A stretch of DNA of 64,000 nucleotides. Source: Hydrurus foetidus. Its lineage: Eukaryota. How positions within the stretch are numbered: position 1 is the first letter of the stretch; the number at the start of each line of letters is the position of its first letter. Positions 16,351 through 45,356 of the stretch are shown in pieces. The notes under the pieces are model-generated. The model did not search any database. It saw only the letters and a program-made list of their open reading frames with translations, and was not told the DNA's origin. The stretch covers positions 2,418,001-2,482,000 of the forward strand of contig UYFQ01000001.1 of NCBI GenBank assembly GCA_900617105.1, given 5' to 3'. The translations under genes were made by a program, and so were the position numbers.

Positions 16351-16356
16351 TACAAT
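16351..16356 (+). promoter_or_regulatory. Probable -10 box of the host tRNA-Arg promoter
   Basis: TACAAT ending 15 nt before the tRNA 5' end. Confidence 0.5.
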
Positions 16357-16370
16357 CCGACGTTCAGCTT

Positions 16371-16409
16371 GCCGCCATAGTTCAACGGATAGAACGAGTG
16401 CCTCCTAAG
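16371..16409 (+). pseudogene. 5' half of host tRNA-Arg(CCT), disrupted by the integrated element (attL)
   Basis: GCCGCCA-TA-GTTC-AACGGATA-GAAC-G-AGTGC-CTCCTAA-G, then non-tRNA sequence; pairs with the 3' half at 23619-23663. Confidence 0.93.
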
Positions 16410-16561
16410 GGGCCACACGCTGTTTATTTAAAATACGATTCTCCTCTGTAAACGGGCTTCAAACAATGTCAGTGGATGCCAGTTTTTTGCAGAAATCCCA
16501 AATTAGCTTGGGATTTTTATGGGACGGGATAATGGGATGCAACGACCCTAATTTTTCTAAA

Positions 16562-16636
16562 CTCGCCGTCGTCTAATGGATCAGACGCATGCCTCCTAAG
16601 CGTGAAATACAGGTTCGATTCCTGTCGGCGGGACCA
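16562..16636 (+). tRNA. Complete tRNA-Arg(CCT) carried by the element
   Basis: Cloverleaf: acceptor CTCGCCG/CGGCGGG, D GTCT/AGAC, anticodon CATGC-CTCCTAA-GCGTG, T ACAGG-TTCGATT-CCTGT, 3' ACCA. Confidence 0.93.
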
Positions 16637-16650
16637 ACCAAAATCTGAGC

Positions 16651-17121
16651 ATGTCCTACGAAGACGCACTCGCAGACCTGAAAGCTGACTTCGGAAAAAA
16701 GAAGCTGCTCACGCCCGCCGAGATCGCGCCTTACATTTCCAAATCGCCATCGGCGCAAGCCTCGATGCGCACGCGTAAGCAGTTTCCCATCGCGAAGAAG
16801 GACATGGGTGGGCGCGTCGTTGTGTCGATCTATGCGTTGGCGAAATACATCGGCGAAGATGAAGGGCCGCTCGATGCTCCCGAACAAATCAGAGTGGGCA
16901 AGCCTGCCAAGCCGGTTGCCAAGACCGCAAAGGGCATCGACAAGACCAAACCATACCGACGCCCGCCATCGCTCGGGAAAACGCTCATAGCCCTGCGCAA
17001 TCGCGTCATTGATACAGCGCTGCAATTGCAATTCCAGCAGACCCTATTCGCCGAACTTGAAGCCATTGCGATGGATCGAGTCGCCGCACCCGGTCGCGCG
17101 AAAAAATCCAAGCCGGCCTAG
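16651..17121 (+). CDS. Excisionase/AlpA-like winged-HTH protein (probable recombination directionality factor)
   Basis: LLTPAEIAPYISKSPS...RKQFPI...GGRVVVSIYALAKYI pattern; basic protein; at the element end opposite int. Confidence 0.65.
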   Translation: MSYEDALADLKADFGKKKLLTPAEIAPYISKSPSAQASMRTRKQFPIAKKDMGGRVVVSIYALAKYIGEDEGPLDAPEQIRVGKPAKPVAKTAKGIDKTKPYRRPPSLGKTLIALRNRVIDTALQLQFQQTLFAELEAIAMDRVAAPGRAKKSKPA

Positions 17122-17248
17122 CGTTGGCGCGCCGCCCATTTTTTCTTCTTAATGCAAAAGCCCCGCTTTGCTGGCGCTGCATGAGTGTCTGCCGTGATAC
17201 ACGCATCACTGCTTATTCCCTGAACGCAACCGCCTCACCCCATCAGTA

Positions 17249-17460
17249 AGAAGGACCCCACGGGGGTCCTTCTCTCCGGCCCCTGTCGGGGCCGGTTCCG
17301 CTCCTACACCGGAGCGGGCACGGCTCGCCCTAAGGACTCTTAAAAAGTCCTTGGCACCATGCCCGCTGCGGTCTACACCATCTGCGGGGCGATGCACTTG
17401 CCAACTGGCATCGCTTCGGAGTTCAGAGCGTTTGGCGCTCCCTCGGGCCGGTCTCCTTCG
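17249..17460. other. Dense cluster of GC-rich hairpins (candidate single-strand origin or ssDNA promoter)
   Basis: Perfect stems at 17249-17273, 17276-17295, 17298-17317 and 17332-17352. Confidence 0.5.
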
Positions 17461-17684
17461 GCTTCGGTGCAGCTTCCCCGAGATACCATCCTGGCTGCTT
17501 GTGCCTGGTCCCCTGACCCTGGCAGGCTGGGGGATCGAGAACCTTGCGGTCGACGCGTGCCCAGCCCGCATCTGGTTTACCAAATCCCGCGCCAATAGCA
17601 AGGCCCCGCCCCTGACCCGTTGAATGGCTCTTGATCTGCTGGGCTGGCCGCGCCATCGTGAAGGCCTCACACCGGAGGCCTCCT

Positions 17685-18002
17685 ATGTCCGCAAGTCCCA
17701 TGCTGCAAGCCATCGACCTCGTGAGGGTCAATATCGACGCCATGACCCTGGAAGACCTCGAAGCCCATGCCGAGCAGGTGCTGGACGCGCTGGGCGGCTT
17801 GAATGAATACACCAACAGCCCTGCCCCAAAGAGTGGGAACGCCAAGCGCAACGCCCTGCATCAGGCCCGCAAGCTACGGCTGCATATGGCGCGGGTTCGT
17901 GATTTGATCAATGCCCGCAAGCTGGCGGCGGTGGTGGTCGCCACCATGCAGGCTGCTGGTTCGGCGAATTTGGCACCGGGTGCGCGGCACCCGGGCTGCT
18001 GA
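17685..18002 (+). CDS. Hypothetical helical protein
   Basis: GGAGG RBS before ATG 17685; 105 aa. Confidence 0.6.
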   Translation: MSASPMLQAIDLVRVNIDAMTLEDLEAHAEQVLDALGGLNEYTNSPAPKSGNAKRNALHQARKLRLHMARVRDLINARKLAAVVVATMQAAGSANLAPGARHPGC

Positions 18003-18226
18003 GATTTTGGATACCTCGCGCGCGTAATGCGCGCACGCGCGTGCGCGCGAGACCGCAGTATAGCCGGGCCTGACAGGATCGATTTCGATGCTGTGGCCCG
18101 GCGTGCCGGCGCGCCAGCAATGACGGGACGAACCTCCGAGCCGCAGGCCGGAGGCTGGTCCCGGCATGGCGCACCCTGTCTTGCTCCCCGCCCTTGCAGG
18201 GCGGGGCTGGGGGTGGGGCGAACAAA

Positions 18227-18255
18227 ACCGAGCTTGCTCGGTGTAGTGAGTAGAC
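18227..18255 (+). promoter_or_regulatory. MOBV-type oriT
   Basis: ACCGAGC-TT-GCTCGGT inverted repeat followed by TAGTGAGTAGAC, resembling the pMV158/pBBR1 nick region; ~55 nt upstream of the relaxase. Confidence 0.7.
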
Positions 18256-18310
18256 CGGACATCTGATGGCCGGGCGTGCAATCTCTGGCGGCGTGCGATA
18301 TGCATGAGGC

Positions 18311-19288
18311 ATGAGCACCCCGCACCCCAGCGCCGCGACCTCGACCCCCTACGCCGTGTTGCGCGTGGATCGCCGAAAAGCGAAAGCGATGGCGGCGATT
18401 GCGGCTTCATCGGCGCACACCATGCGCGAGAAGCCCACACCCAACGCAGACCCCGAGGGCGCGGCGCCGGTCGTGATGCACCTAGCAGACGGCAAGACGC
18501 CTTATCAGGCGGCGCGCCATCTGCTCGAAGGTGCAGAGCGGCGCAACCGGGACACGGTGCTGTGCCGCGAGATCGTGCTCTCTGCAAGCCCTAGCCACTT
18601 CCGGCCAGGGCGGGAGCACATCGGCGGCGCGTATGAGCCGGACAGGGTCAAGGCGTGGGCCACTGCCTCCCTGGCATGGGCCAAGCGGCAATGGCCGGAT
18701 CAACTGGCCTCGGCGGTGCTGCACCTGGACGAGATGACCCCGCACATGCACCTGCTTGTGGTGCCGCGCGTGAAGTCGGCGGCGGGTGTGTGGAAGCTCA
18801 ATAGCAAAGCCCTGTTTGACCGCGAGCGGCTGCGGGAGCTGCAAACCGGATACGGTGAGGCCTTGGCACCGCTAGGCATCCGGCGCGGGGAGCCGGGAAG
18901 CCAGGCGGCGCACTCGGAGGTGCGGCAGTTCTACGGGGCGGTGCAGGCTGCGAAGGCATTGCCCCAGCGGGTCAAGATACCACCTGCACCGAAGGCGCCA
19001 GTGCCACCCAGCGGAATAGTCGCGGGTGCAGCTGATTCCTTGGGTTCACTGCTGCGTATCGAAACTGCTCACGAGCGAGCGACGAAGGCGCACGCCGAGG
19101 CGATGAAGCAATGGCGCCAGACAGTCAGGGACTTGCGCCAACAGGATGCGGTAGCTTGGGAGCAGATGAAGGCGAGTAGCCTCATGGCACCATTAGCAAT
19201 GAGACAGCGTCAACCGCCTGTCGCAACCCACTCCCCAATTAACCAAATGACTGCGCCTAAAAACGGCGCAAGAAACAAGCTTCGCTAG
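18311..19288 (+). CDS. mobV: MOBV (Mob/Pre) relaxase
   Basis: YAVLRV...SSAHTMRE..TPNAD, EIVLSASP, AVLHLDEMTPHMHLLVVP, LRELQT. Confidence 0.9.
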   Translation: MSTPHPSAATSTPYAVLRVDRRKAKAMAAIAASSAHTMREKPTPNADPEGAAPVVMHLADGKTPYQAARHLLEGAERRNRDTVLCREIVLSASPSHFRPGREHIGGAYEPDRVKAWATASLAWAKRQWPDQLASAVLHLDEMTPHMHLLVVPRVKSAAGVWKLNSKALFDRERLRELQTGYGEALAPLGIRRGEPGSQAAHSEVRQFYGAVQAAKALPQRVKIPPAPKAPVPPSGIVAGAADSLGSLLRIETAHERATKAHAEAMKQWRQTVRDLRQQDAVAWEQMKASSLMAPLAMRQRQPPVATHSPINQMTAPKNGARNKLR

Positions 19289-19382
19289 CCCTATCTTCGA
19301 AGCGCCTGCATTGACACTAAATCACTTCGCTCTGACAATATGTTTCAACTTATAGACGTTTGTGGCGAACCAAGGAGTTTCA

Positions 19383-19751
19383 ATGATTAGAGTTTGGGGA
19401 GTAATCATCGTTGTCGCGGGGACTTGTCTTCTTAGCGGATGTGAATCATTAACTCCTGAGCAGCAGGAGTCAAATCGTCGACAGGAACAACAAGAATACA
19501 TAGGAAATCTGAGGAGTAAATGCCAAGCCTTTGGATACTCACCAGGCTCGGATTCATTTGCTCGGTGTGTGCAAGATCAAGACAGGGCATCACAAGCCCG
19601 AGATGCAGCCAGTCATGAAGACACGCTTCGCGCTATACGTGCATACAACTGCAATACTGGCGTCCAATCATCTTGCGACAATCAATCTGGTAGAACGGTG
19701 ACGAGTTGTAGTCGAGATTTAATGGGCAACGTTAATTGCGTTACACGATGA
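19383..19751 (+). CDS. Small Cys-rich lipoprotein
   Basis: Lipobox LLSG-C; CQAFGY..GSDSFARCV; six Cys after the lipidated Cys. Confidence 0.7.
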   Translation: MIRVWGVIIVVAGTCLLSGCESLTPEQQESNRRQEQQEYIGNLRSKCQAFGYSPGSDSFARCVQDQDRASQARDAASHEDTLRAIRAYNCNTGVQSSCDNQSGRTVTSCSRDLMGNVNCVTR

Positions 19752-19758
19752 AAACTAT

Positions 19759-20001
19759 ATGCCCAGGAAAACTGTCAGCGTAGAAGTTCTTGCAGCTTGG
19801 CTCACGTCCAAGTTGCAGCTGGTAGAAGACTGCGAAGAATGTTCCGTTATTGGCATTGTTCCTCTTCAAGAACCTGATCCTAGCGGATGCAATTGGTCAG
19901 AGAGCATCACGGTAAATTCCGCTGGCGTTCCATCTGAATATTTTCTGCCTCACTTGAGAAAAATCATGATGGAAGCAAGATCAAGCTACAACATCGGATA
20001 A
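19759..20001 (+). CDS. Hypothetical protein
   Basis: 80 aa, 7 nt after the lipoprotein; CEEC and PDPSGCNWS. Confidence 0.65.
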   Translation: MPRKTVSVEVLAAWLTSKLQLVEDCEECSVIGIVPLQEPDPSGCNWSESITVNSAGVPSEYFLPHLRKIMMEARSSYNIG

Positions 20002-20304
20002 CACAACTCAGTTCCTGAGTATGTTTATTTTTGACCGCTGAATCTTCCATCTAGCTTGCTGGCAAGAGTTTCTAGCCGAAGATTTGCATAGCGCTGCAAC
20101 GTCTTCAATTCGGTATACCCCATGATCAGGGCAATTTCCATATTCTGCAACGTCGTGCGTTCGAAAAATCTTGCCACACCCGATAAACCGACCATGTGTA
20201 AGATTCAGACACATGCAAAGTCGCGGCTTGCGGCGCATCACTCTGAGTGATCGCCTCATTTTTCACCCGTTGCGTCGAAAGCCAACTGCCCGAAAAGATT
20301 TGCC

Positions 20305-21291
20305 ATGAATATTTCGCAAAGCGACAACCTAAGCAATGGCCTTTCACCAGCCGTTGACTTCACGTTCTCAGAAAAGCTCGAAGCATCTGAGCGTGATGTG
20401 TGCGCGAATATTTTCAAAAATTTGGCCGGGTCAATCAGACAACAACATCCTGAATTGTCCTTTGATCGCTTACTTCACATCATTGTTTCTGACAACGTTT
20501 GGGAAACCGTCGCCGCACTAGAAAAAATAGTGGGTCATGAGCTATCCGCTGCACGGAATGGTGCCCAATCCTACTTGGCATTTTCCGTTGACTTAGGCCA
20601 AATTGATGTATTGGTCTACCGCATCGAGCTGATCAACGGATTTTCTAGCGGTCATCCCCGAAAAGCTGATTCGGTCTGGCATTACCTAAGCACATTGGCG
20701 AATATTGACTATTACACAAAAGCGAAGGCCAGATTTGCCAACGACCCATGGCGAGCAAAAGCAAATCAGGCTGAACTCGCAATTTTTGGCGCCGCTAGTG
20801 ATCTGCTTGCAAACTATTGGTTTGGATATTTCAGTTATCACCCTCGTAGTTCGCCCTTAGCTCCATTTGAGCTACTCGCCGAAATCTTGGATTACGAGTC
20901 TCGGCAAATGGAGTCCTCGTTCATCGCCAACGCAAAAGATAAAGATGATTTCAAGCTGTTTAATGAACTTCATAGCAGCGCAACCTCTGTATGCGGAGCT
21001 ATGGCCACAGCGATGGGTTACTGTGATGCGGCCAATCAATCGTTAGCGAAGTCATCACCAGAGACTTGGGCGCTGATATTGAAATGGAATTTTGCGGATG
21101 TGTGGGAAAAAATGGCGCCCATCATGCGTATCGTTTTTTCGAATCGACATCTTTGGAGCAACTCAGCTGATTTGCTGCCGCTGGCCACAGTTCTCAACTA
21201 TTTTGTAGAAAGGTGTGGAATAACTTTTACAAGCGATGGGGGGACTACCCCATTTAGGTCAACACCCCTTGAAAAGGGCAATTCTCATTAG
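20305..21291 (+). CDS. Hypothetical protein (lower-GC cargo)
   Basis: 328-aa ORF with no motif I recognise. Confidence 0.7.
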   Translation: MNISQSDNLSNGLSPAVDFTFSEKLEASERDVCANIFKNLAGSIRQQHPELSFDRLLHIIVSDNVWETVAALEKIVGHELSAARNGAQSYLAFSVDLGQIDVLVYRIELINGFSSGHPRKADSVWHYLSTLANIDYYTKAKARFANDPWRAKANQAELAIFGAASDLLANYWFGYFSYHPRSSPLAPFELLAEILDYESRQMESSFIANAKDKDDFKLFNELHSSATSVCGAMATAMGYCDAANQSLAKSSPETWALILKWNFADVWEKMAPIMRIVFSNRHLWSNSADLLPLATVLNYFVERCGITFTSDGGTTPFRSTPLEKGNSH

Positions 21292-21303
21292 TTCACATTG
21301 GCT

Positions 21304-22284
21304 TCATAGGGATTTTGCCAAGCGCTTCGCTGTTTCGTCTCTTGCTTCACTAATAGTTTTGAATGAGTCGGAAAGCAGAGTGTCAATCGCGCACCACGCA
21401 TGACCAGCTTTGATTATTCCTCTGCCAGTCCTTTTTTCCGTTTTTGGTTTCATAGGTGGTCCAAGGCGATAAACAAAATGGTCAAAATCAGTTTTTACCC
21501 AGAGGTGATTCACGCTGGACAGGTCTTCGACGACCTCAAAACTATCGATGTGATGAACAGACTGCAACTTACCGTGATACCGAAAGGCAATGTAATTGGG
21601 TGGCTGCTTTGGAAAACGTTTGCCCACAGGGTGAAAATAACAGCCGTCCTTTTCAACCACATCAATCCACGTATGCTTGCCGCCCTCTACCATCGGTTCC
21701 AAGCCTAATGACACTACGAAAACGTTGTTGTCTGTAACGCGATCCATGGCAACGAACTCCTGCAAATGTTGGATGAACTGATACAGCCAAAGTCTTTCCT
21801 CAAAAGTAGTTGCGCTCGCGCGCGCCTGTTTTGCTATTCGCTGAACATCCCCCCAAGACTGATGAATAATTTCTGCGCCATCGATGTGTGGCGGAAGTCG
21901 CCTATGTGCAAAGGCCGCATCCGCTGCGCTTACAGATATGAGGCGCTGGATGTTAGCGCCGATAGCGCCAAGCCTTGGTCGATATCGATTTAACTGTGCT
22001 GTCGTGGGGACGTCCCACCATCGCTTCGCCTCAACTATGGCGTGGTATTGAAGACCTGCATGGACTTCGATATCAGTGAATCCTCCATCGCTTCCATGCT
22101 TCTGCAACGAGATCACAGCATCTTCCGATGGAAGAGACTCTCCGAACCAAGCATTGATCATTGCCAAACGAAAAAGTTTGCTTTGGTCAAGCAGCCAGCC
22201 CAACGCATATGTCGCGCTGTTTTCGTCGGCACCATTTAGGCGGAAAACATTGGCGGCATTGCTGCCGCGAACTAACAACACCAT
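21304..22284 (-). CDS. PD-(D/E)XK nuclease-domain protein
   Basis: ENSAT..L.WLL, FTDIEV, IVEAK, QLNRY, SWGDV. Confidence 0.7.
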   Translation of the reverse strand: MVLLVRGSNAANVFRLNGADENSATYALGWLLDQSKLFRLAMINAWFGESLPSEDAVISLQKHGSDGGFTDIEVHAGLQYHAIVEAKRWWDVPTTAQLNRYRPRLGAIGANIQRLISVSAADAAFAHRRLPPHIDGAEIIHQSWGDVQRIAKQARASATTFEERLWLYQFIQHLQEFVAMDRVTDNNVFVVSLGLEPMVEGGKHTWIDVVEKDGCYFHPVGKRFPKQPPNYIAFRYHGKLQSVHHIDSFEVVEDLSSVNHLWVKTDFDHFVYRLGPPMKPKTEKRTGRGIIKAGHAWCAIDTLLSDSFKTISEARDETAKRLAKSL

Positions 22285-22314
22285 AGTTTCAAATAAGCTT
22301 TACTGCCTGCAATC

Positions 22315-23487
22315 TTATTCCTGTATTTCGATCATTTTCGCCAAAGAGCGTAATTTCAATTTCGACATGCCCGCTCCGTCTAATTTACTAGCCAAAATTG
22401 ATGGCCGCAGATTTGCATACCGTTGCAATGTTTTCAACTCAGTGTGCCCTGTGATCAGCGCAATCTCCATTGTCTGCAACGTGGTGCGCTCGAAAAATCG
22501 CGCCACGGCCTCATGGCGCAAGTCATGGAAATGCAGGTCTGCGCATTCGGCGCGCTTCGTGATTCGTTTGAATCCGCGTCCGAGCACTGAGGACACAGCG
22601 GGCAGCGTTGCGAACACGCGGGGCTCGCCTTTCACGCCGCGCTTCTTCAACTCTGCCAATATCCCCAGGGCCTTGGTCGATAGCGGCACCTGCCGCCCCT
22701 TGCGGGTCTTCTCGCGCTCCTTCGGTATCACGATAAACCGCTGTGCAGTGTTCACCTCGTCCCATTGCATGCCGATCAACTCGCCCGCGCGCATTGCGGT
22801 TTCAAGTGCAAGGCTGATCAGAAGCTGCCAGCCTCTCTGGTCTTTATACATGCCACCACAGGCCACCATCAGCCGCGCCTCTTCGTCGCCGTTCAAACGA
22901 CGGTCTCGCGGTGCTGCCCACGCTGCGGGCACCTCCACCGCCTGGAACTTGTCGCCCAACGGGTAGTGGTGTTCATGCGAGTGCCATTCGATAGCGGTCT
23001 TCAATGCATAAAACAGTTTGCGTGCTGACCCTGGTGTGTAGGTGCGCACGCGGTCGCCGTCATACAGTGGGTGGGTCTTGGTCTTGTTGGCTGGTTGCGG
23101 TATCGGCGTTACTTGCAGTTTTTTCAAGAAGGCACTGATGACCTTGTGGCTGAGTGTGTCGATGGTGAAGTCGCCAAGATGATATTTGACGGACTCGACG
23201 CCGTATCGCTTCGTGTTGGTCAGCGTGCTAACCGTCTCACCTTCGGCATTGGTGGCGCTGTGGGCTGCGAGGTATTCGGTCAATGCGTCGGCAACAGTGG
23301 TGCGCTCGCTTTTGCGCGAGACCTTGTCGCCGCCTCGTATCTTGACCTCTTGTTCTTGCGCCCACTTGACGGCGTCCCGCTTCTTGTTTTTGTCGAAGGT
23401 CTTGGATAGTGGCGGGTGGCCCTTGATGGTTATGCGCGCTTCCCAGAACTCACGCTCGCCCCGCACTCGCTTGGTAACTGCTGCCAT
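22315..23487 (-). CDS. int: Tyrosine recombinase/integrase
   Basis: TAMRAGEL, FHDLRHE, ITGHT...LQRY catalytic residues. Confidence 0.95.
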   Translation of the reverse strand: MAAVTKRVRGEREFWEARITIKGHPPLSKTFDKNKKRDAVKWAQEQEVKIRGGDKVSRKSERTTVADALTEYLAAHSATNAEGETVSTLTNTKRYGVESVKYHLGDFTIDTLSHKVISAFLKKLQVTPIPQPANKTKTHPLYDGDRVRTYTPGSARKLFYALKTAIEWHSHEHHYPLGDKFQAVEVPAAWAAPRDRRLNGDEEARLMVACGGMYKDQRGWQLLISLALETAMRAGELIGMQWDEVNTAQRFIVIPKEREKTRKGRQVPLSTKALGILAELKKRGVKGEPRVFATLPAVSSVLGRGFKRITKRAECADLHFHDLRHEAVARFFERTTLQTMEIALITGHTELKTLQRYANLRPSILASKLDGAGMSKLKLRSLAKMIEIQE

Positions 23488-23618
23488 GGTGTTGCCCTAT
23501 GATGAAATTGAGCAGAAGGTCCCTAATCTTCGCCAACTTGGGATTAGATTGGGATTTCATCATAACTGATAGTCAAGAATCTATATTCTATGCGGCTTAG
23601 CGACAGATAGTGTTAGCT

Positions 23619-23663
23619 CCTCCTAAGCGCTAGATACAGGTTCGATTCCTGTTGGTGGTACCA
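23619..23663 (+). pseudogene. 3' half of host tRNA-Arg(CCT) (attR)
   Basis: CCTCCTAA-GCGCT-AGAT-ACAGG-TTCGATT-CCTGT-TGGTGGT-ACCA with no tRNA 5' half upstream. Confidence 0.93.
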
Positions 23664-23680: not shown

Positions 23681-23729
23681 TACTATTATTTTTATAGCTG
23701 CTTGCGCCCGAATCTATTGGGCTAGAGGC
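23681..23729 (+). repeat. Family-1 repeat
   Basis: TACTATTATTTTTATAGCTGCTTGCGCCCGAATCTATTGGGCTAGAGGC. Confidence 0.9.
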
Positions 23730-23766
23730 TTAAAACACCCTCTGAAATGCTTAAAAAGCGTCAAAA

Positions 23767-26700
23767 TCAGGCGACCCAGCCATCGCCAAACGCTTGCACC
23801 TGCTCCAGCACCAGCTCAACCGCTGCGTCCTGGTGGTCTGGAGGGTATTTGTATTTGCGCAGGATACGTTTGACCATCAGCCGCAATTTGGCCTGCACAC
23901 TTTCGCGGGCTGACCAGTCCACACTCAGGTTTTTGCGCAGGTTTTCTGTCAGCTCATGGGCGATTTTTTTCAGGGTCTCGTCAGTCAGTTCGCGCACGGC
24001 GGATTCGTTGGCTGCCAGCGCGTTGTAAAACTTCACTTCGTCCTCGCTCAGCCCCAGCTTTTCGCCTTGCAAAGAAGCTTCTCTAAACTTCTTTGCCATT
24101 TCAATCAGCTCTTCCATCACCTGCGCGGTTTCAATCGAGCGGTTTTGATAGCGGGCAATCACGTTGCTCAGCATGTCAGAGAACTTGCGGTCTTGCACCA
24201 CACTACCTGCAAAGCGGCTTTTAATTTCGCCTTGCAGCAGGCGTTCTAGTAGCTCTACGGCCAGGTTCTTTTCGGGCAGGTCGCGCACCTGCGCTAAAAA
24301 CTCATCGTCTAGCAGGCCAATGTTCGGCTTGTCCAGGCCCACCGCGTCAAAAATATCGACCACACTTTCAGAAACCACCGCCGACGAAATGATTTGGCGG
24401 ATGGCCAGCTCGCGCTGCTCGTCGGTGCGTTTTTTGGCTGTCAGTTCTTTCTTGGTCAAAATGACTTTCACGCCTTGTAAAAAAGCCACTTCTTCGCGTA
24501 CCCCTTTGGCTTCATCCAGCGTGCAGCACAGGGTAAAGGCCTGACTCATTGCCAGCGCGTTGTCGGCAAAGCGCTTTTTACCGTCGCGGGTTTTACCAGT
24601 GGCCAAGCCCAGCACGTGGTTAGCAGCGCCTGCCAGTGTTTTGTGGCCGCCGGTTAAAAAGTTTTGATAGTCAAATCCGTGCAGCATGGCGCGCAGCACG
24701 TCCATCTTTTCAAGCAACACGCTAAACGCCTCATGCGCATCTACCGTCGGCCTGCCGCGCCCCTGGCTGGCGGTGTATTCCTTCATGGCCAGCTTCAGTT
24801 CGTTACCAATGCCGATGTAGTCCACCACCAAGCCGCCCTGCTTGTCTTTAAACACACGGTTGACCCGCGCAATCGCCTGCATCAAGTTGTGGCCCTTCAT
24901 GGGTTTGTCAACGTACAGCGTGTGCACGCATGGCGCGTCAAAACCTGTCAGCCACATGTCCCGTACGATGACCATGCGCAGCGGGTCGGCTGGGTCTTTA
25001 AAGCGCTTTTCAAGCCGCTTTTTAACTTGCGCGCTGTAGATGTGCGGGCGCAGCAGGGCCTTGTCGCTGGCTGAGCCTGTCATCACAATTTTGATTGCGC
25101 CTTTTTCAGGGTCTGCATCGTGCCAGTCGGGCCGCAGGCGAATGATCTCGTTGTACAGGTGGGCGCAAATGTCGCGGCTCATGGCCACCACCATCGCCTT
25201 GCCGGTTTGCGCCTTGTTACGCTCTTCAAAATGCGCCACCAGGTCAGCCGCCACGCTGGCGATGCGCGGCTCGGCGCCCACCACCTTTTCAAGCGCCGCC
25301 CAGCGGCTTTTCAGGGCTGCCTGCTGGCTTTCTTCGTCGTCTTCGGCCAGCTCGTCCACGTCATCATCCAGTTGCTGTAGGTCAGCGTCTTTCAGGCTCA
25401 GCTTGGCCAGACGCGATTCGTAATAAATCGCCACCGTCGCACCGTCTTCTTTGGACTGCTGCATGTCATACACATGGATGTAGTCGCCAAACACGGCGCG
25501 CGTGTCGCGGTCTGTGCTGCTGACAGGCGTGCCGGTAAAAGCAACAAAGGTGGCTTTGGGCAGCGCGTCGCGCAGATGCTGGGCGTAACCTGCCTGGTAG
25601 TGTTCTTGGATTTGTTCAACCTTGTAAATAGGCGGCTCAAACTCAACCCGGTGCTTTGTCACCACACCATCACCAGTTGCTACAACATTAGGAGCTGTTC
25701 GCGCATGTATCCATTGGCCTGAAGGCGTATTTGATGCCTTTTTCAGCCTTAATTTGGCCTCAAAACCGTATTGGGTGCGGTGCGCCTCGTCGGCTATCAC
25801 CACAATGTTGTGCCGCTCTGACAGGATGGGAAAGGTGTCTTCGTCCTCCCCTGGCATAAATTTTTGAATGGTGGCAAACACAATGCCGCCTGATGGCCGG
25901 TTGCCCAGCAGCGTGCGCAGCTCTTGCCGGGTGCGCGCCTGCACGGGTTGCTCACGCAGCAGGTCTTGCGCCAGGCTGAACACGCCAAACAGTTGCCCGT
26001 CCAGGTCATTGCGGTCGCTGATGACAACGATGGTTGGGTTTTCCATCGCAGGTTCTTGCATCACGCGGGCGGCAAAGCAGGTCATGGTGATGCTTTTGCC
26101 GCTGCCCTGCGTGTGCCACACCACACCGCCTTTTTGATTACCACCGGGGCGTGACGCTTCAATCACCTTGGCAATGGCAAACCGCACCGCATGAAACTGG
26201 TGGTAGCCGGCAATCTTTTTAAGCAGCGCGCCGTCGTCTTCAAACAGCACAAAGTAACGCAGGTAGTCCAGCAAATAGGTGGGCGCCAGCACGCCGCGCA
26301 CCAGCGTTTGCAGCTCATTGAACTGCCCCAGCGGGTCCAGCGTTTGGCCGTCAATCGTGCGCCAGGCCATAAAGCGCTCGGCATCGCTAGACAGTGAGCC
26401 CATCAGCGCCTCGGTGCCGTCAGATATCACCAGCACCTCGTTGGTCTGGAACACGTCGGGAATTTGCTCTTTGTAGGTCTGTATCTGGTCGTAGGCCTTC
26501 CACACATTGGCGTTTTCGTCAGCCGGGTTTTTGATCTCTACCAGCACCAGCGGCAAGCCGTTGACGAACAAAATGATGTCTGGCCGCCTGGTATGGTGCG
26601 GGCCCTTGATGCTGAACTGATTCACTGCCAGCCAGTCGTTGCTTGCGGTAGCCGCCCAGTCAATCAAGCGAACAAAGTCGCCCCGCGTCTCGCCGTCCTT

Positions 26701-26997
26701 CTGGTACTGCACCGGCACACCGGTGACCAGCAACTGATGAAAGCGCCGGTTGGCCGTCAGCAGCGCAGCAATCCCCAAATCCATCACTTGCTTTAGTGCA
26801 TCGTCACGCGCCGCAGCAGGCACGCCAGGGTTCAGCCGGTCAATCGCTGCACGCAAGCGCCCGGTCAAAATCACCTGTCGGTAGTTGTCACGCTCAGGCG
26901 CAGGGCCATCGGGCGCGACGTCGGGGCCGTAAACCACGGTGTAGCCAACGTCTGCCAGCCAGCCAAGCGCTTCTTGTTCTAGTTGGTCTTCGGTCAT
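23767..26997 (-). CDS. hsdR: Type I restriction endonuclease subunit R
   Basis: [19 protein letters not shown] nuclease, [34 protein letters not shown]. Confidence 0.97.
25678..25726 (+). repeat. Family-1 repeat, in-frame inside hsdR
   Basis: TGCTACAACATTAGGAGCTGTTCGCGCATGTATCCATTGGCCTGAAGGC; reads [16 protein letters not shown]. Confidence 0.7.
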
Positions 26998-28076
26998 GGT
27001 GCTACCCCAGCGGCACCCAGCAACACAGCATTAAGAGCCGTGTTGACATAGTAGTTACCACGCCCGATTTTTTGCTTTTGTACAAACCCACCTGCTGCCA
27101 AAGCATCCATGTACTTGGTGGCGGTGATACGTGACACCTGCAAGTCCCGCTGCACAAACTCGATTTTGGTGTACGGGTGCATGAACAGGTTATTGATCAA
27201 GTCCTGGCTATAAAACTTGTACTCGTCTCGAATCCGGTGCTTGTAGTCAAACAGCGCTGCCTTGATGGCATGAATGGTGGCCAGCGTCTGGCCAGCAGTT
27301 TGCTCTACAGCCTCAAGCAAGTACAACACCCACTCCTCCCAGTTGTCGTCTTCACGCACGGTTTGCAGCAAGCGGTAGTAGTCAGCCTTGGTACGCACAA
27401 TGTGGCTGCTGAGGTAAAGCACCGGAATATCCAGCAGCCCCTCTTTGACCAGATACAGCACATTCAATATCCGCCCGGTACGGCCATTGCCATCGTAAAA
27501 CGGGTGAATGCTTTCAAACTGATGGTGCATCAATGCCATTTTGATCAGCGGGTCAGCATCAAACAGCTCGGCATCGTTCATAAACCGCTCCAGCCCGCGC
27601 ATCAGCTCAATGATCTCAGTCGGGTCTTGCGGCGGCGTGTAAATGGTTTTGCCAGCGCCGTCTTTGAGCGCAGTGCCCGGCAGCTTGCGAAAACCGGCGT
27701 TGTTACGCTCAAGCTCGCCTTGAATTTCAATGATGTGGTTGGCCGTCAGCAAGCCGCTGGCGCGTACCTGCTCAAACCCCACCCGCAGCGCCTGGCGGTA
27801 GCGCAGCACTTCTTTGGCGGCTGGGTTGGCAAAGGCCTCTGGCAACACATCGTCTTTAAACAACGCATCGTGCGTGGTGACGATGTTTTCAATCTCTGAG
27901 CTGTCCTTGGCCTCTTGCAGGCCCAGCGTGTTGATCAAAATGCCTTGATTGGGAATCGACGCTGCAATCCCCTTCAGCTCAGCCAGCTTGCGGCTGGTAG
28001 CGGCCAGCTTTTTCAAAATTACCGGCGTGTCAAAACGCGCGGGGTTGAGACTTTCAAGTGGCGTTAGCGTGGGCAT
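26994..28076 (-). CDS. Fic family AMPylase (SoFic-like, C-terminal HTH)
   Basis: [12 protein letters not shown] catalytic motif; SSEIENI inhibitory motif; [13 protein letters not shown]. Confidence 0.93.
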
Positions 28077-44322: not shown

Positions 44323-45294
44323 CTACTTAGACGCGCTTTTTGCGTCTGGCCGCGCAGGCGACTGCGCTTGCAAATATGTCCACAGCGCCTGCGCCGCGCT
44401 TTTTGTTGCCAGGCTGGTGGTGGCTTCACGGTTAGCTGGGCGCTCACGGTAAACGCGAATGTCCATCGTCATGTCTAACGCATTGCTGAGCATGTCAGCG
44501 GCGGGCACCAGCTTTTTGGCGCGCAGCTCTTTTTTAACTGCGCTGAACGGTAAAAACGCAATGCCGTGGCCTTCAAGCGCCATGGCTTTCAGCCCTTCTG
44601 CCATGTCAGTTTCGTACACCCGGTCTAAATGAATCGCCGTGCTGGACTGCTTCAAAATCAAGTCCACCACCCTGCCCAGGTAAGCACCCGGCGCGTAGCC
44701 CAAATACGGCAGCGGCTGCCCGGCACGGCCCGGCAGTTTGTACAGGGGCTCGCCGTCAGCGTTGGGTTTTACGTAGGGCGACAGCACCTCTTGCCCCAGC
44801 GTCACCATTTCATAACGGTTAGGGTCGAGCTGAAACGGCTGCGAGTCGTGGTGGTAAGCAATCAATAAATCGCAACTGCCCTCAACCAGGCGCAGCACGG
44901 CGTCGTGCACGTTCAGGGCAATCAGGCGGCTCTTGATTGGCCCAAACTTTTCACGCAAGCTGCTGACCCAAGCCGGGAAAAATGTAAAAGCCAACGTGTG
45001 CGGCACAGCAAACTCAATCACGTCTTGCCCCGCAGAGGTGTGGCCGCGCAGCATGGCGCGGGTGGACTGCAGGCCCTGCAGCATTTCAAGCGACTGGCTG
45101 TAAAGCGTTTCACCCGCCGGTGTAAGCCGCGTTGGGTACGAGCTGCGGTCGACCAAGTCAGTACCCGCCCAAGCCTCGAGCGCCTGAATGCGCCGCGAAA
45201 ACGCCGGCTGCGTAACGTGGCGCAGCGTGGCCGAGCGGCTGAAGCTGCGGGTTTCAGCCAAGCTGACGAAATCTTCAAGCCATTTGGTTTCCAT
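44323..45294 (-). CDS. LysR family transcriptional regulator
   Basis: SFSRSA..RHVTQPAFSRRIQALE. Confidence 0.95.
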   Translation of the reverse strand: METKWLEDFVSLAETRSFSRSATLRHVTQPAFSRRIQALEAWAGTDLVDRSSYPTRLTPAGETLYSQSLEMLQGLQSTRAMLRGHTSAGQDVIEFAVPHTLAFTFFPAWVSSLREKFGPIKSRLIALNVHDAVLRLVEGSCDLLIAYHHDSQPFQLDPNRYEMVTLGQEVLSPYVKPNADGEPLYKLPGRAGQPLPYLGYAPGAYLGRVVDLILKQSSTAIHLDRVYETDMAEGLKAMALEGHGIAFLPFSAVKKELRAKKLVPAADMLSNALDMTMDIRVYRERPANREATTSLATKSAAQALWTYLQAQSPARPDAKSASK

Positions 45295-45356
45295 AACCAG
45301 ATTATGTAAGCTTGGCCGAACAGGGCTGCTACGGGGATTCCCATAGGCACCTTGAG

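Follow-up and report, generated by a model that had tools for sequence, protein, structure and literature searches.

The 64,000-nt window analysed here (contig UYFQ01000001.1, positions 2,418,001 to 2,482,000, of assembly GCA_900617105.1, deposited as Hydrurus foetidus) contains an integrative element of 7,218 bp with a tyrosine integrase and a MobV relaxase, which splits the host tRNA-Arg(CCT) gene, repairs neither half and carries a whole tRNA gene that very probably replaces it. Coordinates below are those of the window. Such a break-and-replace strategy, proposed in an earlier sequence-only reading of this DNA, is supported because the layout is conserved in a family of related elements and because the internal tRNA gene is independent and under selection. 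That reading overstated the novelty, as the strategy has been published for phages under the name of tRNA-dependent lysogeny (PMC10865867). Judged from the sequences compared here, non-phage elements also use a strategy of this kind, and it is met repeatedly in a family of small elements from Proteobacteria.

The host tRNA-Arg(CCT) gene follows a gene for a VWA-domain protein and is present as two halves with the element between their cores. The 5' half (16371..16409, plus strand) agrees with the corresponding part of intact genes in relatives and ends in the attL core (16401-16409); the attR core (23619-23627) opens the 3' half (23619..23663, plus strand), which likewise matches the intact genes of relatives. 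The insertion site is the anticodon loop. The positions and sequences given by the sequence-only reading for both halves and for the internal gene were recovered unchanged, and its claim that the halves share only a short core was borne out: the identity common to both junctions is exactly CCTCCTAAG, with no extension on either side. This 9-mer occurs three times in the window, in the two host halves and in the internal tRNA. With the 7,218 bp removed in silico, the resulting attB yields a 75-nt tRNA-Arg(CCT) with ARAGORN; the sole tRNA called on the in-silico attP is the internal gene, and none is called on attL or attR, as the sequence-only reading had proposed for the two junctions. One contig of run X1, possibly the source sample, covers both junctions with 0 differences. 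A contig of run X2 that joins 16400 to 23619 (depth 4.5 versus about 1,100; short side 29 letters) was not counted as excision; the joint is ambiguous because a relative of 90% identity is present in X2 at depth 4.2 and relatives have the same host tRNA sequence.

The internal gene (16562..16636, plus strand) begins 152 bp inside attL and is a complete tRNA-Arg(CCT) with encoded CCA, recognized by ARAGORN and by Rfam RF00005 (52.8 bits, gathering threshold 29, versus 62.9 bits for the host type). It is identical to the host gene at 57/75 positions and has the same anticodon loop. A20, C35 and an A discriminator are present, which we take to be determinants for the arginyl-tRNA synthetase. The gene is identical at 75/75 positions in the related elements of genomes G482 and G536, next to spacers that are identical at 116/153 and 134/153 positions, respectively. 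Four-fold sites differ at 20/78 in the gene next to the tRNA (versus G482) and at 80/167 in the integrase gene, and at those rates the chance of zero change in the tRNA is 2e-10 to 5e-5 (about 2e-10 for G482). The tRNA of G378 matches that of the window at 67/75 positions; all eight differences lie in the D arm, and six of them make up three compensatory D-stem pairs. Selection on the internal tRNA is indicated by full identity beside diverged flanks together with the compensatory changes, and the view that it is an independent gene is supported by the same comparisons. The sequence-only reading had argued for independence from the mispairing of hybrids between host and internal halves. The host-5'/internal-3' hybrid does mispair as it had described, but ARAGORN still calls a tRNA on it; the host-3'/internal-5' hybrid is called only at a relaxed threshold.

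Relatives were found by integrase homology, with carriers in 3/401, 3/401, 2/204, 1/68 and 1/350 genomes across the family searches. For five further elements a single contig includes both ends: those of G482 (5,286 bp, on the same contig as locus L011), G248 (5,530 bp), G609 (15,881 bp), G833 (15,526 bp) and G847 (11,068 bp). In all six complete elements, including that of the window, only 9-11 bp are shared between the ends, attB rebuilds a tRNA, attL and attR give none, and one whole tRNA gene with the anticodon of the target lies about 150-210 bp inside attL. In G378 the same left end is seen, with the right end on a separate contig. The expectation that homologous elements carry a full tRNA near attL holds for 6/6 integrase-selected relatives with a visible left end; G536, which shares this left end, was found via its tRNA and stands outside that count. 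In G847 (one contig, 100% complete), G609, G833, G378 and G536, no whole CCT gene other than that of the element was found. The element of G248 splits a tRNA-Arg(TCT) gene and brings along a TCT gene; no other whole TCT gene was found in this genome, which is 87% complete. This 5.5-kb element (L054:2945-8550, G248:C42) lies behind a tRNA-Pro, has a cargo open reading frame (ORF) that is TIR-like by eye, and gave no match to the relaxase of the window.

Across the family the integrases share 34-91% identity, and cargo and host alleles differ under the same layout. A homolog of the excisionase-like gene, which in the window starts 14 nt after the internal tRNA, adjoins the tRNA in G482, G378, G609, G833 and G847. 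Because deeper relatives use another relaxase type, the constant part of the family appears to be a module of integrase, excisionase and tRNA; the relaxase of G847 is MbeA-like with a MobC-like partner. The cargo of this element (L227:2626-4559) includes a DNA adenine methyltransferase and a probable restriction enzyme. In a quick tree of 39 integrases (midpoint root) the split elements fall in one 12-row clade with a Shimodaira-Hasegawa-like approximate likelihood ratio (SH-aLRT) value of 100, and 27 metagenomic rows stand apart from it, mostly with a whole tRNA upstream. The metagenome scan, which covered 4/64 parts, placed 76/79 loci at 28-45% integrase identity, many of them with a whole tRNA just upstream, which is the classical layout. 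Loci with only a right end (L009, L010, L012, L013/G162, L015 and G524) were left out of the counts because classical and split elements are indistinguishable there; at L014, L058 and L059 no element end is visible.

The P' arm of attL (16410..16561, plus strand) contains TGGGAT-type repeats at 16495 (reverse), 16509, 16520 and 16533, which are predicted integrase arm sites. A repeat search located two TTGGGAT repeats at 23538-23555 in the P arm of attR (23488..23618, plus strand). Of 13 plus-strand matches to TGGGA[TC] in the window, five lie within 16410-16561 or 23539-23554, and the attL-arm repeats are retained in G482, G536 and G378. The clusters in both arms are thus likely arm-type sites. 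The tyrosine integrase (390 aa; 22315..23487, minus strand; PF00589, E 5.2e-23) has its catalytic motifs (R233, H321-x-x-R324, H348 and Y357) intact. Close counterparts come from Rhodoferax, Polaromonas and other betaproteobacterial metagenome-assembled genomes (143 proteins pass E 1e-40), with no plasmid match and only 31-40% identity to phage and viral records.

The product of the excisionase-like gene (16651..17121, plus strand) is a putative helix-turn-helix protein of 156 aa, with weak matches only (phrog_66 excisionase, E 0.0025; Atlas HTH_17-type neighbours at 0.92). It is followed by a 123-aa ORF (17631..18002, plus strand) that is 78-94% identical in L009, L010 and G482 and has no Pfam or PHROG match, and by the MobV-type (Mob_Pre) relaxase (18311..19288, plus strand; PF01076, E 5.7e-20), which has the motif HxDExxPHxH at residue 138 and reaches 99.5 bits against the NCBIfam MobV cut-off of 100. 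The variable low-GC cargo (19362..22284; GC 0.46-0.49), absent from G482, consists of ORFs of 129, 80 and 328 aa on the plus strand and 326 aa on the minus strand, for which Pfam and PHROG gave no family match; for the 326-aa ORF there is a PD-(D/E)XK nuclease-like lead (Atlas PDDEXK_4 on 23% of one cluster). PADLOC matched 0/6 ORFs. Within the cargo, 20046-20201 encodes an integrase remnant that is 75% identical to residues 320-371 of the integrase C-terminus.

Among the eight element proteins only the integrase and the excisionase-like protein match PHROG. The Pfam and PHROG scans detected no virion, replication or mating-pore genes among the element ORFs, and no primase, replication or capsid-redirecting genes as in phage satellites of the phage-inducible chromosomal island (PICI) or P4-like type. 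The stretch 17100-19300 had no DNA match in the plasmid collection, and the element tRNA none in viral contigs. Because it combines an integrase and att sites with a relaxase of its own, without mating-pore or phage genes, the element is classed, on gene content, as a non-phage integrative mobilizable element; by the same token it would not qualify as a temperate phage.

In tRNA-dependent lysogeny (Guerrero-Bustamante and Hatfull, mBio 2024, PMC10865867) a core of about 10 bp goes together with a phage tRNA of the same isotype, the requirement for which has been proven. The study covers actinobacteriophages (Fionnbharth and other Subcluster K4 phages) and mentions the Lactobacillus prophage Lj965; the sections of it consulted name no island or satellite. 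The same strategy is reported for Lo5R7ANS-like prophages of Sinorhizobium (PMC11476347; PMC12429752). The elements described here resemble these phages in their tyrosine integrase with attB in a host tRNA gene, the short core in the anticodon loop (9 bp in the window), attL and attR without a tRNA, and an element tRNA that has the same anticodon but is unlike the host gene. They differ in being elements of 5-16 kb with relaxases, not phages, and in residing in Betaproteobacteria. Their tRNA lies 150-210 bp inside attL beside an excisionase-like gene, in either orientation, whereas that of Fionnbharth is driven by a promoter of its own and overlaps with a protein-coding gene. The targets of the mycobacterial phages are essential, while the CCU target is dispensable in Escherichia coli. 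No non-phage case of split-and-replace was found in the literature searched, which took in few subscription journals and no supplements.

According to the classical rule, islands restore their target gene, and those with anticodon-loop crossovers form class A (Islander, PMC4383910). The element shares with such tRNA-targeting islands the tyrosine integrase, the anticodon-loop crossover and a displaced tRNA fragment at an end; unlike theirs, its attP has no restoring fragment, and both ends are fragments. Going by the published description of the Islander algorithm, a search for a fragment plus a whole gene would match the 3' half to the internal tRNA and draw the left boundary about 190 bp inside its true position. 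With MOBV (Mob_Pre) integrative mobilizable elements it shares the integrase and relaxase, the variable cargo and the absence of detected conjugation-pore, replication or virion genes; the replacement tRNA sets it apart from them.

The empty site was studied at 30 VWA-gene loci from relatives of G001, the nearest genome. An intact host-type gene stands right behind the VWA gene at four of these loci. At two of the four, in G023 (L018) and G005 (L038), that gene is identical to the in-silico attB gene; in G005 it is the single tRNA gene at the locus, and both flanks are shared with the window (beyond attR at 146/163 bases). Tandem Arg-CCT genes at this place in element-free relatives would speak against the proposal; G005 has none, and in G517 two whole host-type copies, neither of element type, lie 746 bp apart at the VWA locus, the only tandem case seen. 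The CCT 3'-arm motif is present in 129/151 genomes of the genus and in 80/82 good ones, and is single-copy in 121 of the 129 with a match (the tally takes in the unpublished genome G448); this near-universal retention argues for a fitness value of the gene. G001 itself (81% complete) gave no CCT match, and its VWA gene is cut short by a contig end so that just the start is present.

Resident tRNA-Arg(CCT) genes in the genus of G001 fall into at least five unrelated sequence types, and some of those at the VWA locus are on opposite strands (L017, L019), a pattern that speaks for the gene having been replaced repeatedly. Element-type tRNA genes are resident in G557, G543 and G496, with no halves within the 8-18 kb examined around them, which suggests that such genes were captured from other hosts or became domesticated in them. 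In G025 a tRNA-Arg(CCT) following the VWA gene (L055:1480-1777) has an interruption of about 222 nt in its anticodon loop (ARAGORN intron call); the insert looks like a group I intron by eye and has no match in Rfam.

In the proposed mechanism the integrase would cross over within the anticodon loop, the element tRNA-Arg(CCT) would take over AGG decoding while the element is integrated, and precise excision would restore the host gene. The earlier suggestion that the element tRNA supplies AGG decoding upon excision is thereby unnecessary. A TACAAT box (16351..16356, plus strand), likely the -10 element of the host tRNA promoter, precedes the 5' half; the same hexamer is found at most 45 nt upstream in 16/16 intact host-type genes (30 loci examined). 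Because of this box, and because the terminator scan found no terminator-like site ahead of the internal gene, it is plausible that, in the orientation seen in the window, transcription from the host promoter crosses the 152 bp of the attL arm and continues through the tRNA to the gene of the excisionase-like protein. In G609, G833 and G847 the tRNA gene is reversed and therefore cannot use the host promoter. The element may spread when its relaxase lets a conjugative helper system mobilize it. If the tRNA were lost other than by precise excision, fitness would suffer, probably mildly for CCU and probably lethally for the UCU-splitting relative, where lethality is expected because only the UCU tRNA reads AGA.

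Several observations weigh against break-and-replace or limit its force. Dependence on the CCU tRNA is possibly mild, because G847, G609, G833, G378 and G536, as well as G001, have UCU genes of their own and because in E. coli argW (CCU) is dispensable and the UCU tRNA reads AGG (PMC4652775). The element tRNA has C9 and C21, unusual at positions where most relatives have A, scores 10 bits below the host gene with Rfam, and no consensus promoter was found in the promoter scan. G482 has a further intact host-type copy on another contig, G162 (99% complete) gave only a 3' half and no whole CCT gene, and in G944 an intact gene of another type follows the VWA gene. G833 and G847 have different host alleles, but are not independent cases because their integrases are nearly identical. 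The split layout is not universal in its clade, as G1278 and L060, both among the 12 rows, have a whole tRNA-Ser(GCT) at the integrase end. These two (L236:21-113 in G1278; L060:1-53) are possibly elements that restore tRNA-Ser(GCT) with a 5' half; at a different place G1278 carries another Ser(GCT) gene.

Three other explanations were weighed. The tRNA could be ordinary cargo, kept for AGG decoding of foreign genes or for evasion of tRNA nucleases, with compensation for the split gene incidental; we regard this as improbable. It would fit the dispensability of the CCU tRNA in E. coli and the higher share of AGG in the element ORFs (11/1,777 codons, versus 25/8,433 in 18 long ORFs outside, about twofold), and nuclease escape is discussed in PMC10865867. 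AGG is absent, however, from the integrase and excisionase-like genes, which leaves little of the decoding benefit put forward in the sequence-only reading. The resistance to anticodon nucleases it also proposed is not an obvious outcome where the escape would be loop-directed, as host and element loops are identical. In 6/6 complete elements the anticodon is that of the split target, including the switch to TCT, which speaks against ordinary cargo.

It is very improbable that the internal gene chiefly gives further elements a regenerated attachment site, or a decoy, and does not have to work as a tRNA. The same 9-bp core inside it, the unusual C9 and C21, and the integrase remnant, which suggests a nested insertion, would agree with such a role, but conservation spans all 75 nt including CCA, the three D-stem pairs of G378 are fully compensatory and far from the core, and none of the eight element tRNA genes seen is interrupted. 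A classical island whose restoring 3' fragment was deleted, in a host that later acquired or retained a second tRNA by chance at this one locus, as the rearrangement recorded in the integrase remnant, the tandem copies of G517 and the resident element-type genes of G557, G543 and G496 might suggest, is equally hard to credit and largely refuted by the recurrence of the layout across diverged integrases, cargo and host alleles, with arm repeats and integrase intact.

Directly after attR the window encodes a type I restriction HsdR and a Fic gene (23767-28076); HsdR adjoins the same tRNA in L010 and G517, which suggests a hotspot for defence islands. The intergenic sequence at 23681-23734 is repeated, with an approximately tenfold rise in depth and many contigs ending loose there, and a weak ARAGORN pseudo-tRNA call lies nearby. 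A 101-nt tRNA-Arg(GCG) called by ARAGORN at 45209-45309 is atypical in anticodon and length and probably spurious.

Break-and-replace, so far proven only in phages, would with these elements extend to small conjugation-dependent islands of Proteobacteria. As the target tRNA is probably not essential, lethal dependence can be separated from plain compensation, and the selective reason for the strategy becomes testable. Island finders built on the assumption of gene repair would place the borders of such elements wrongly, and from the relative that targets UCU a marker-free integration system held by an essential tRNA could be developed. More tentatively, and as a whole rather doubtful, the family may form a clade of non-phage mobilizable islands in which an exchangeable integrase-excisionase-tRNA module retargets between Arg CCU and Arg UCU by tRNA swap, tRNA and excisionase stand under a captured host promoter, which would let excision control respond to host tRNA transcription, and decaying elements leave their tRNA as a new resident gene. 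Through such elements core tRNA genes could be replaced horizontally, and if the broader proposal is true, tRNAs left by decayed elements would explain the several unrelated tRNA-Arg(CCU) alleles within one genus.

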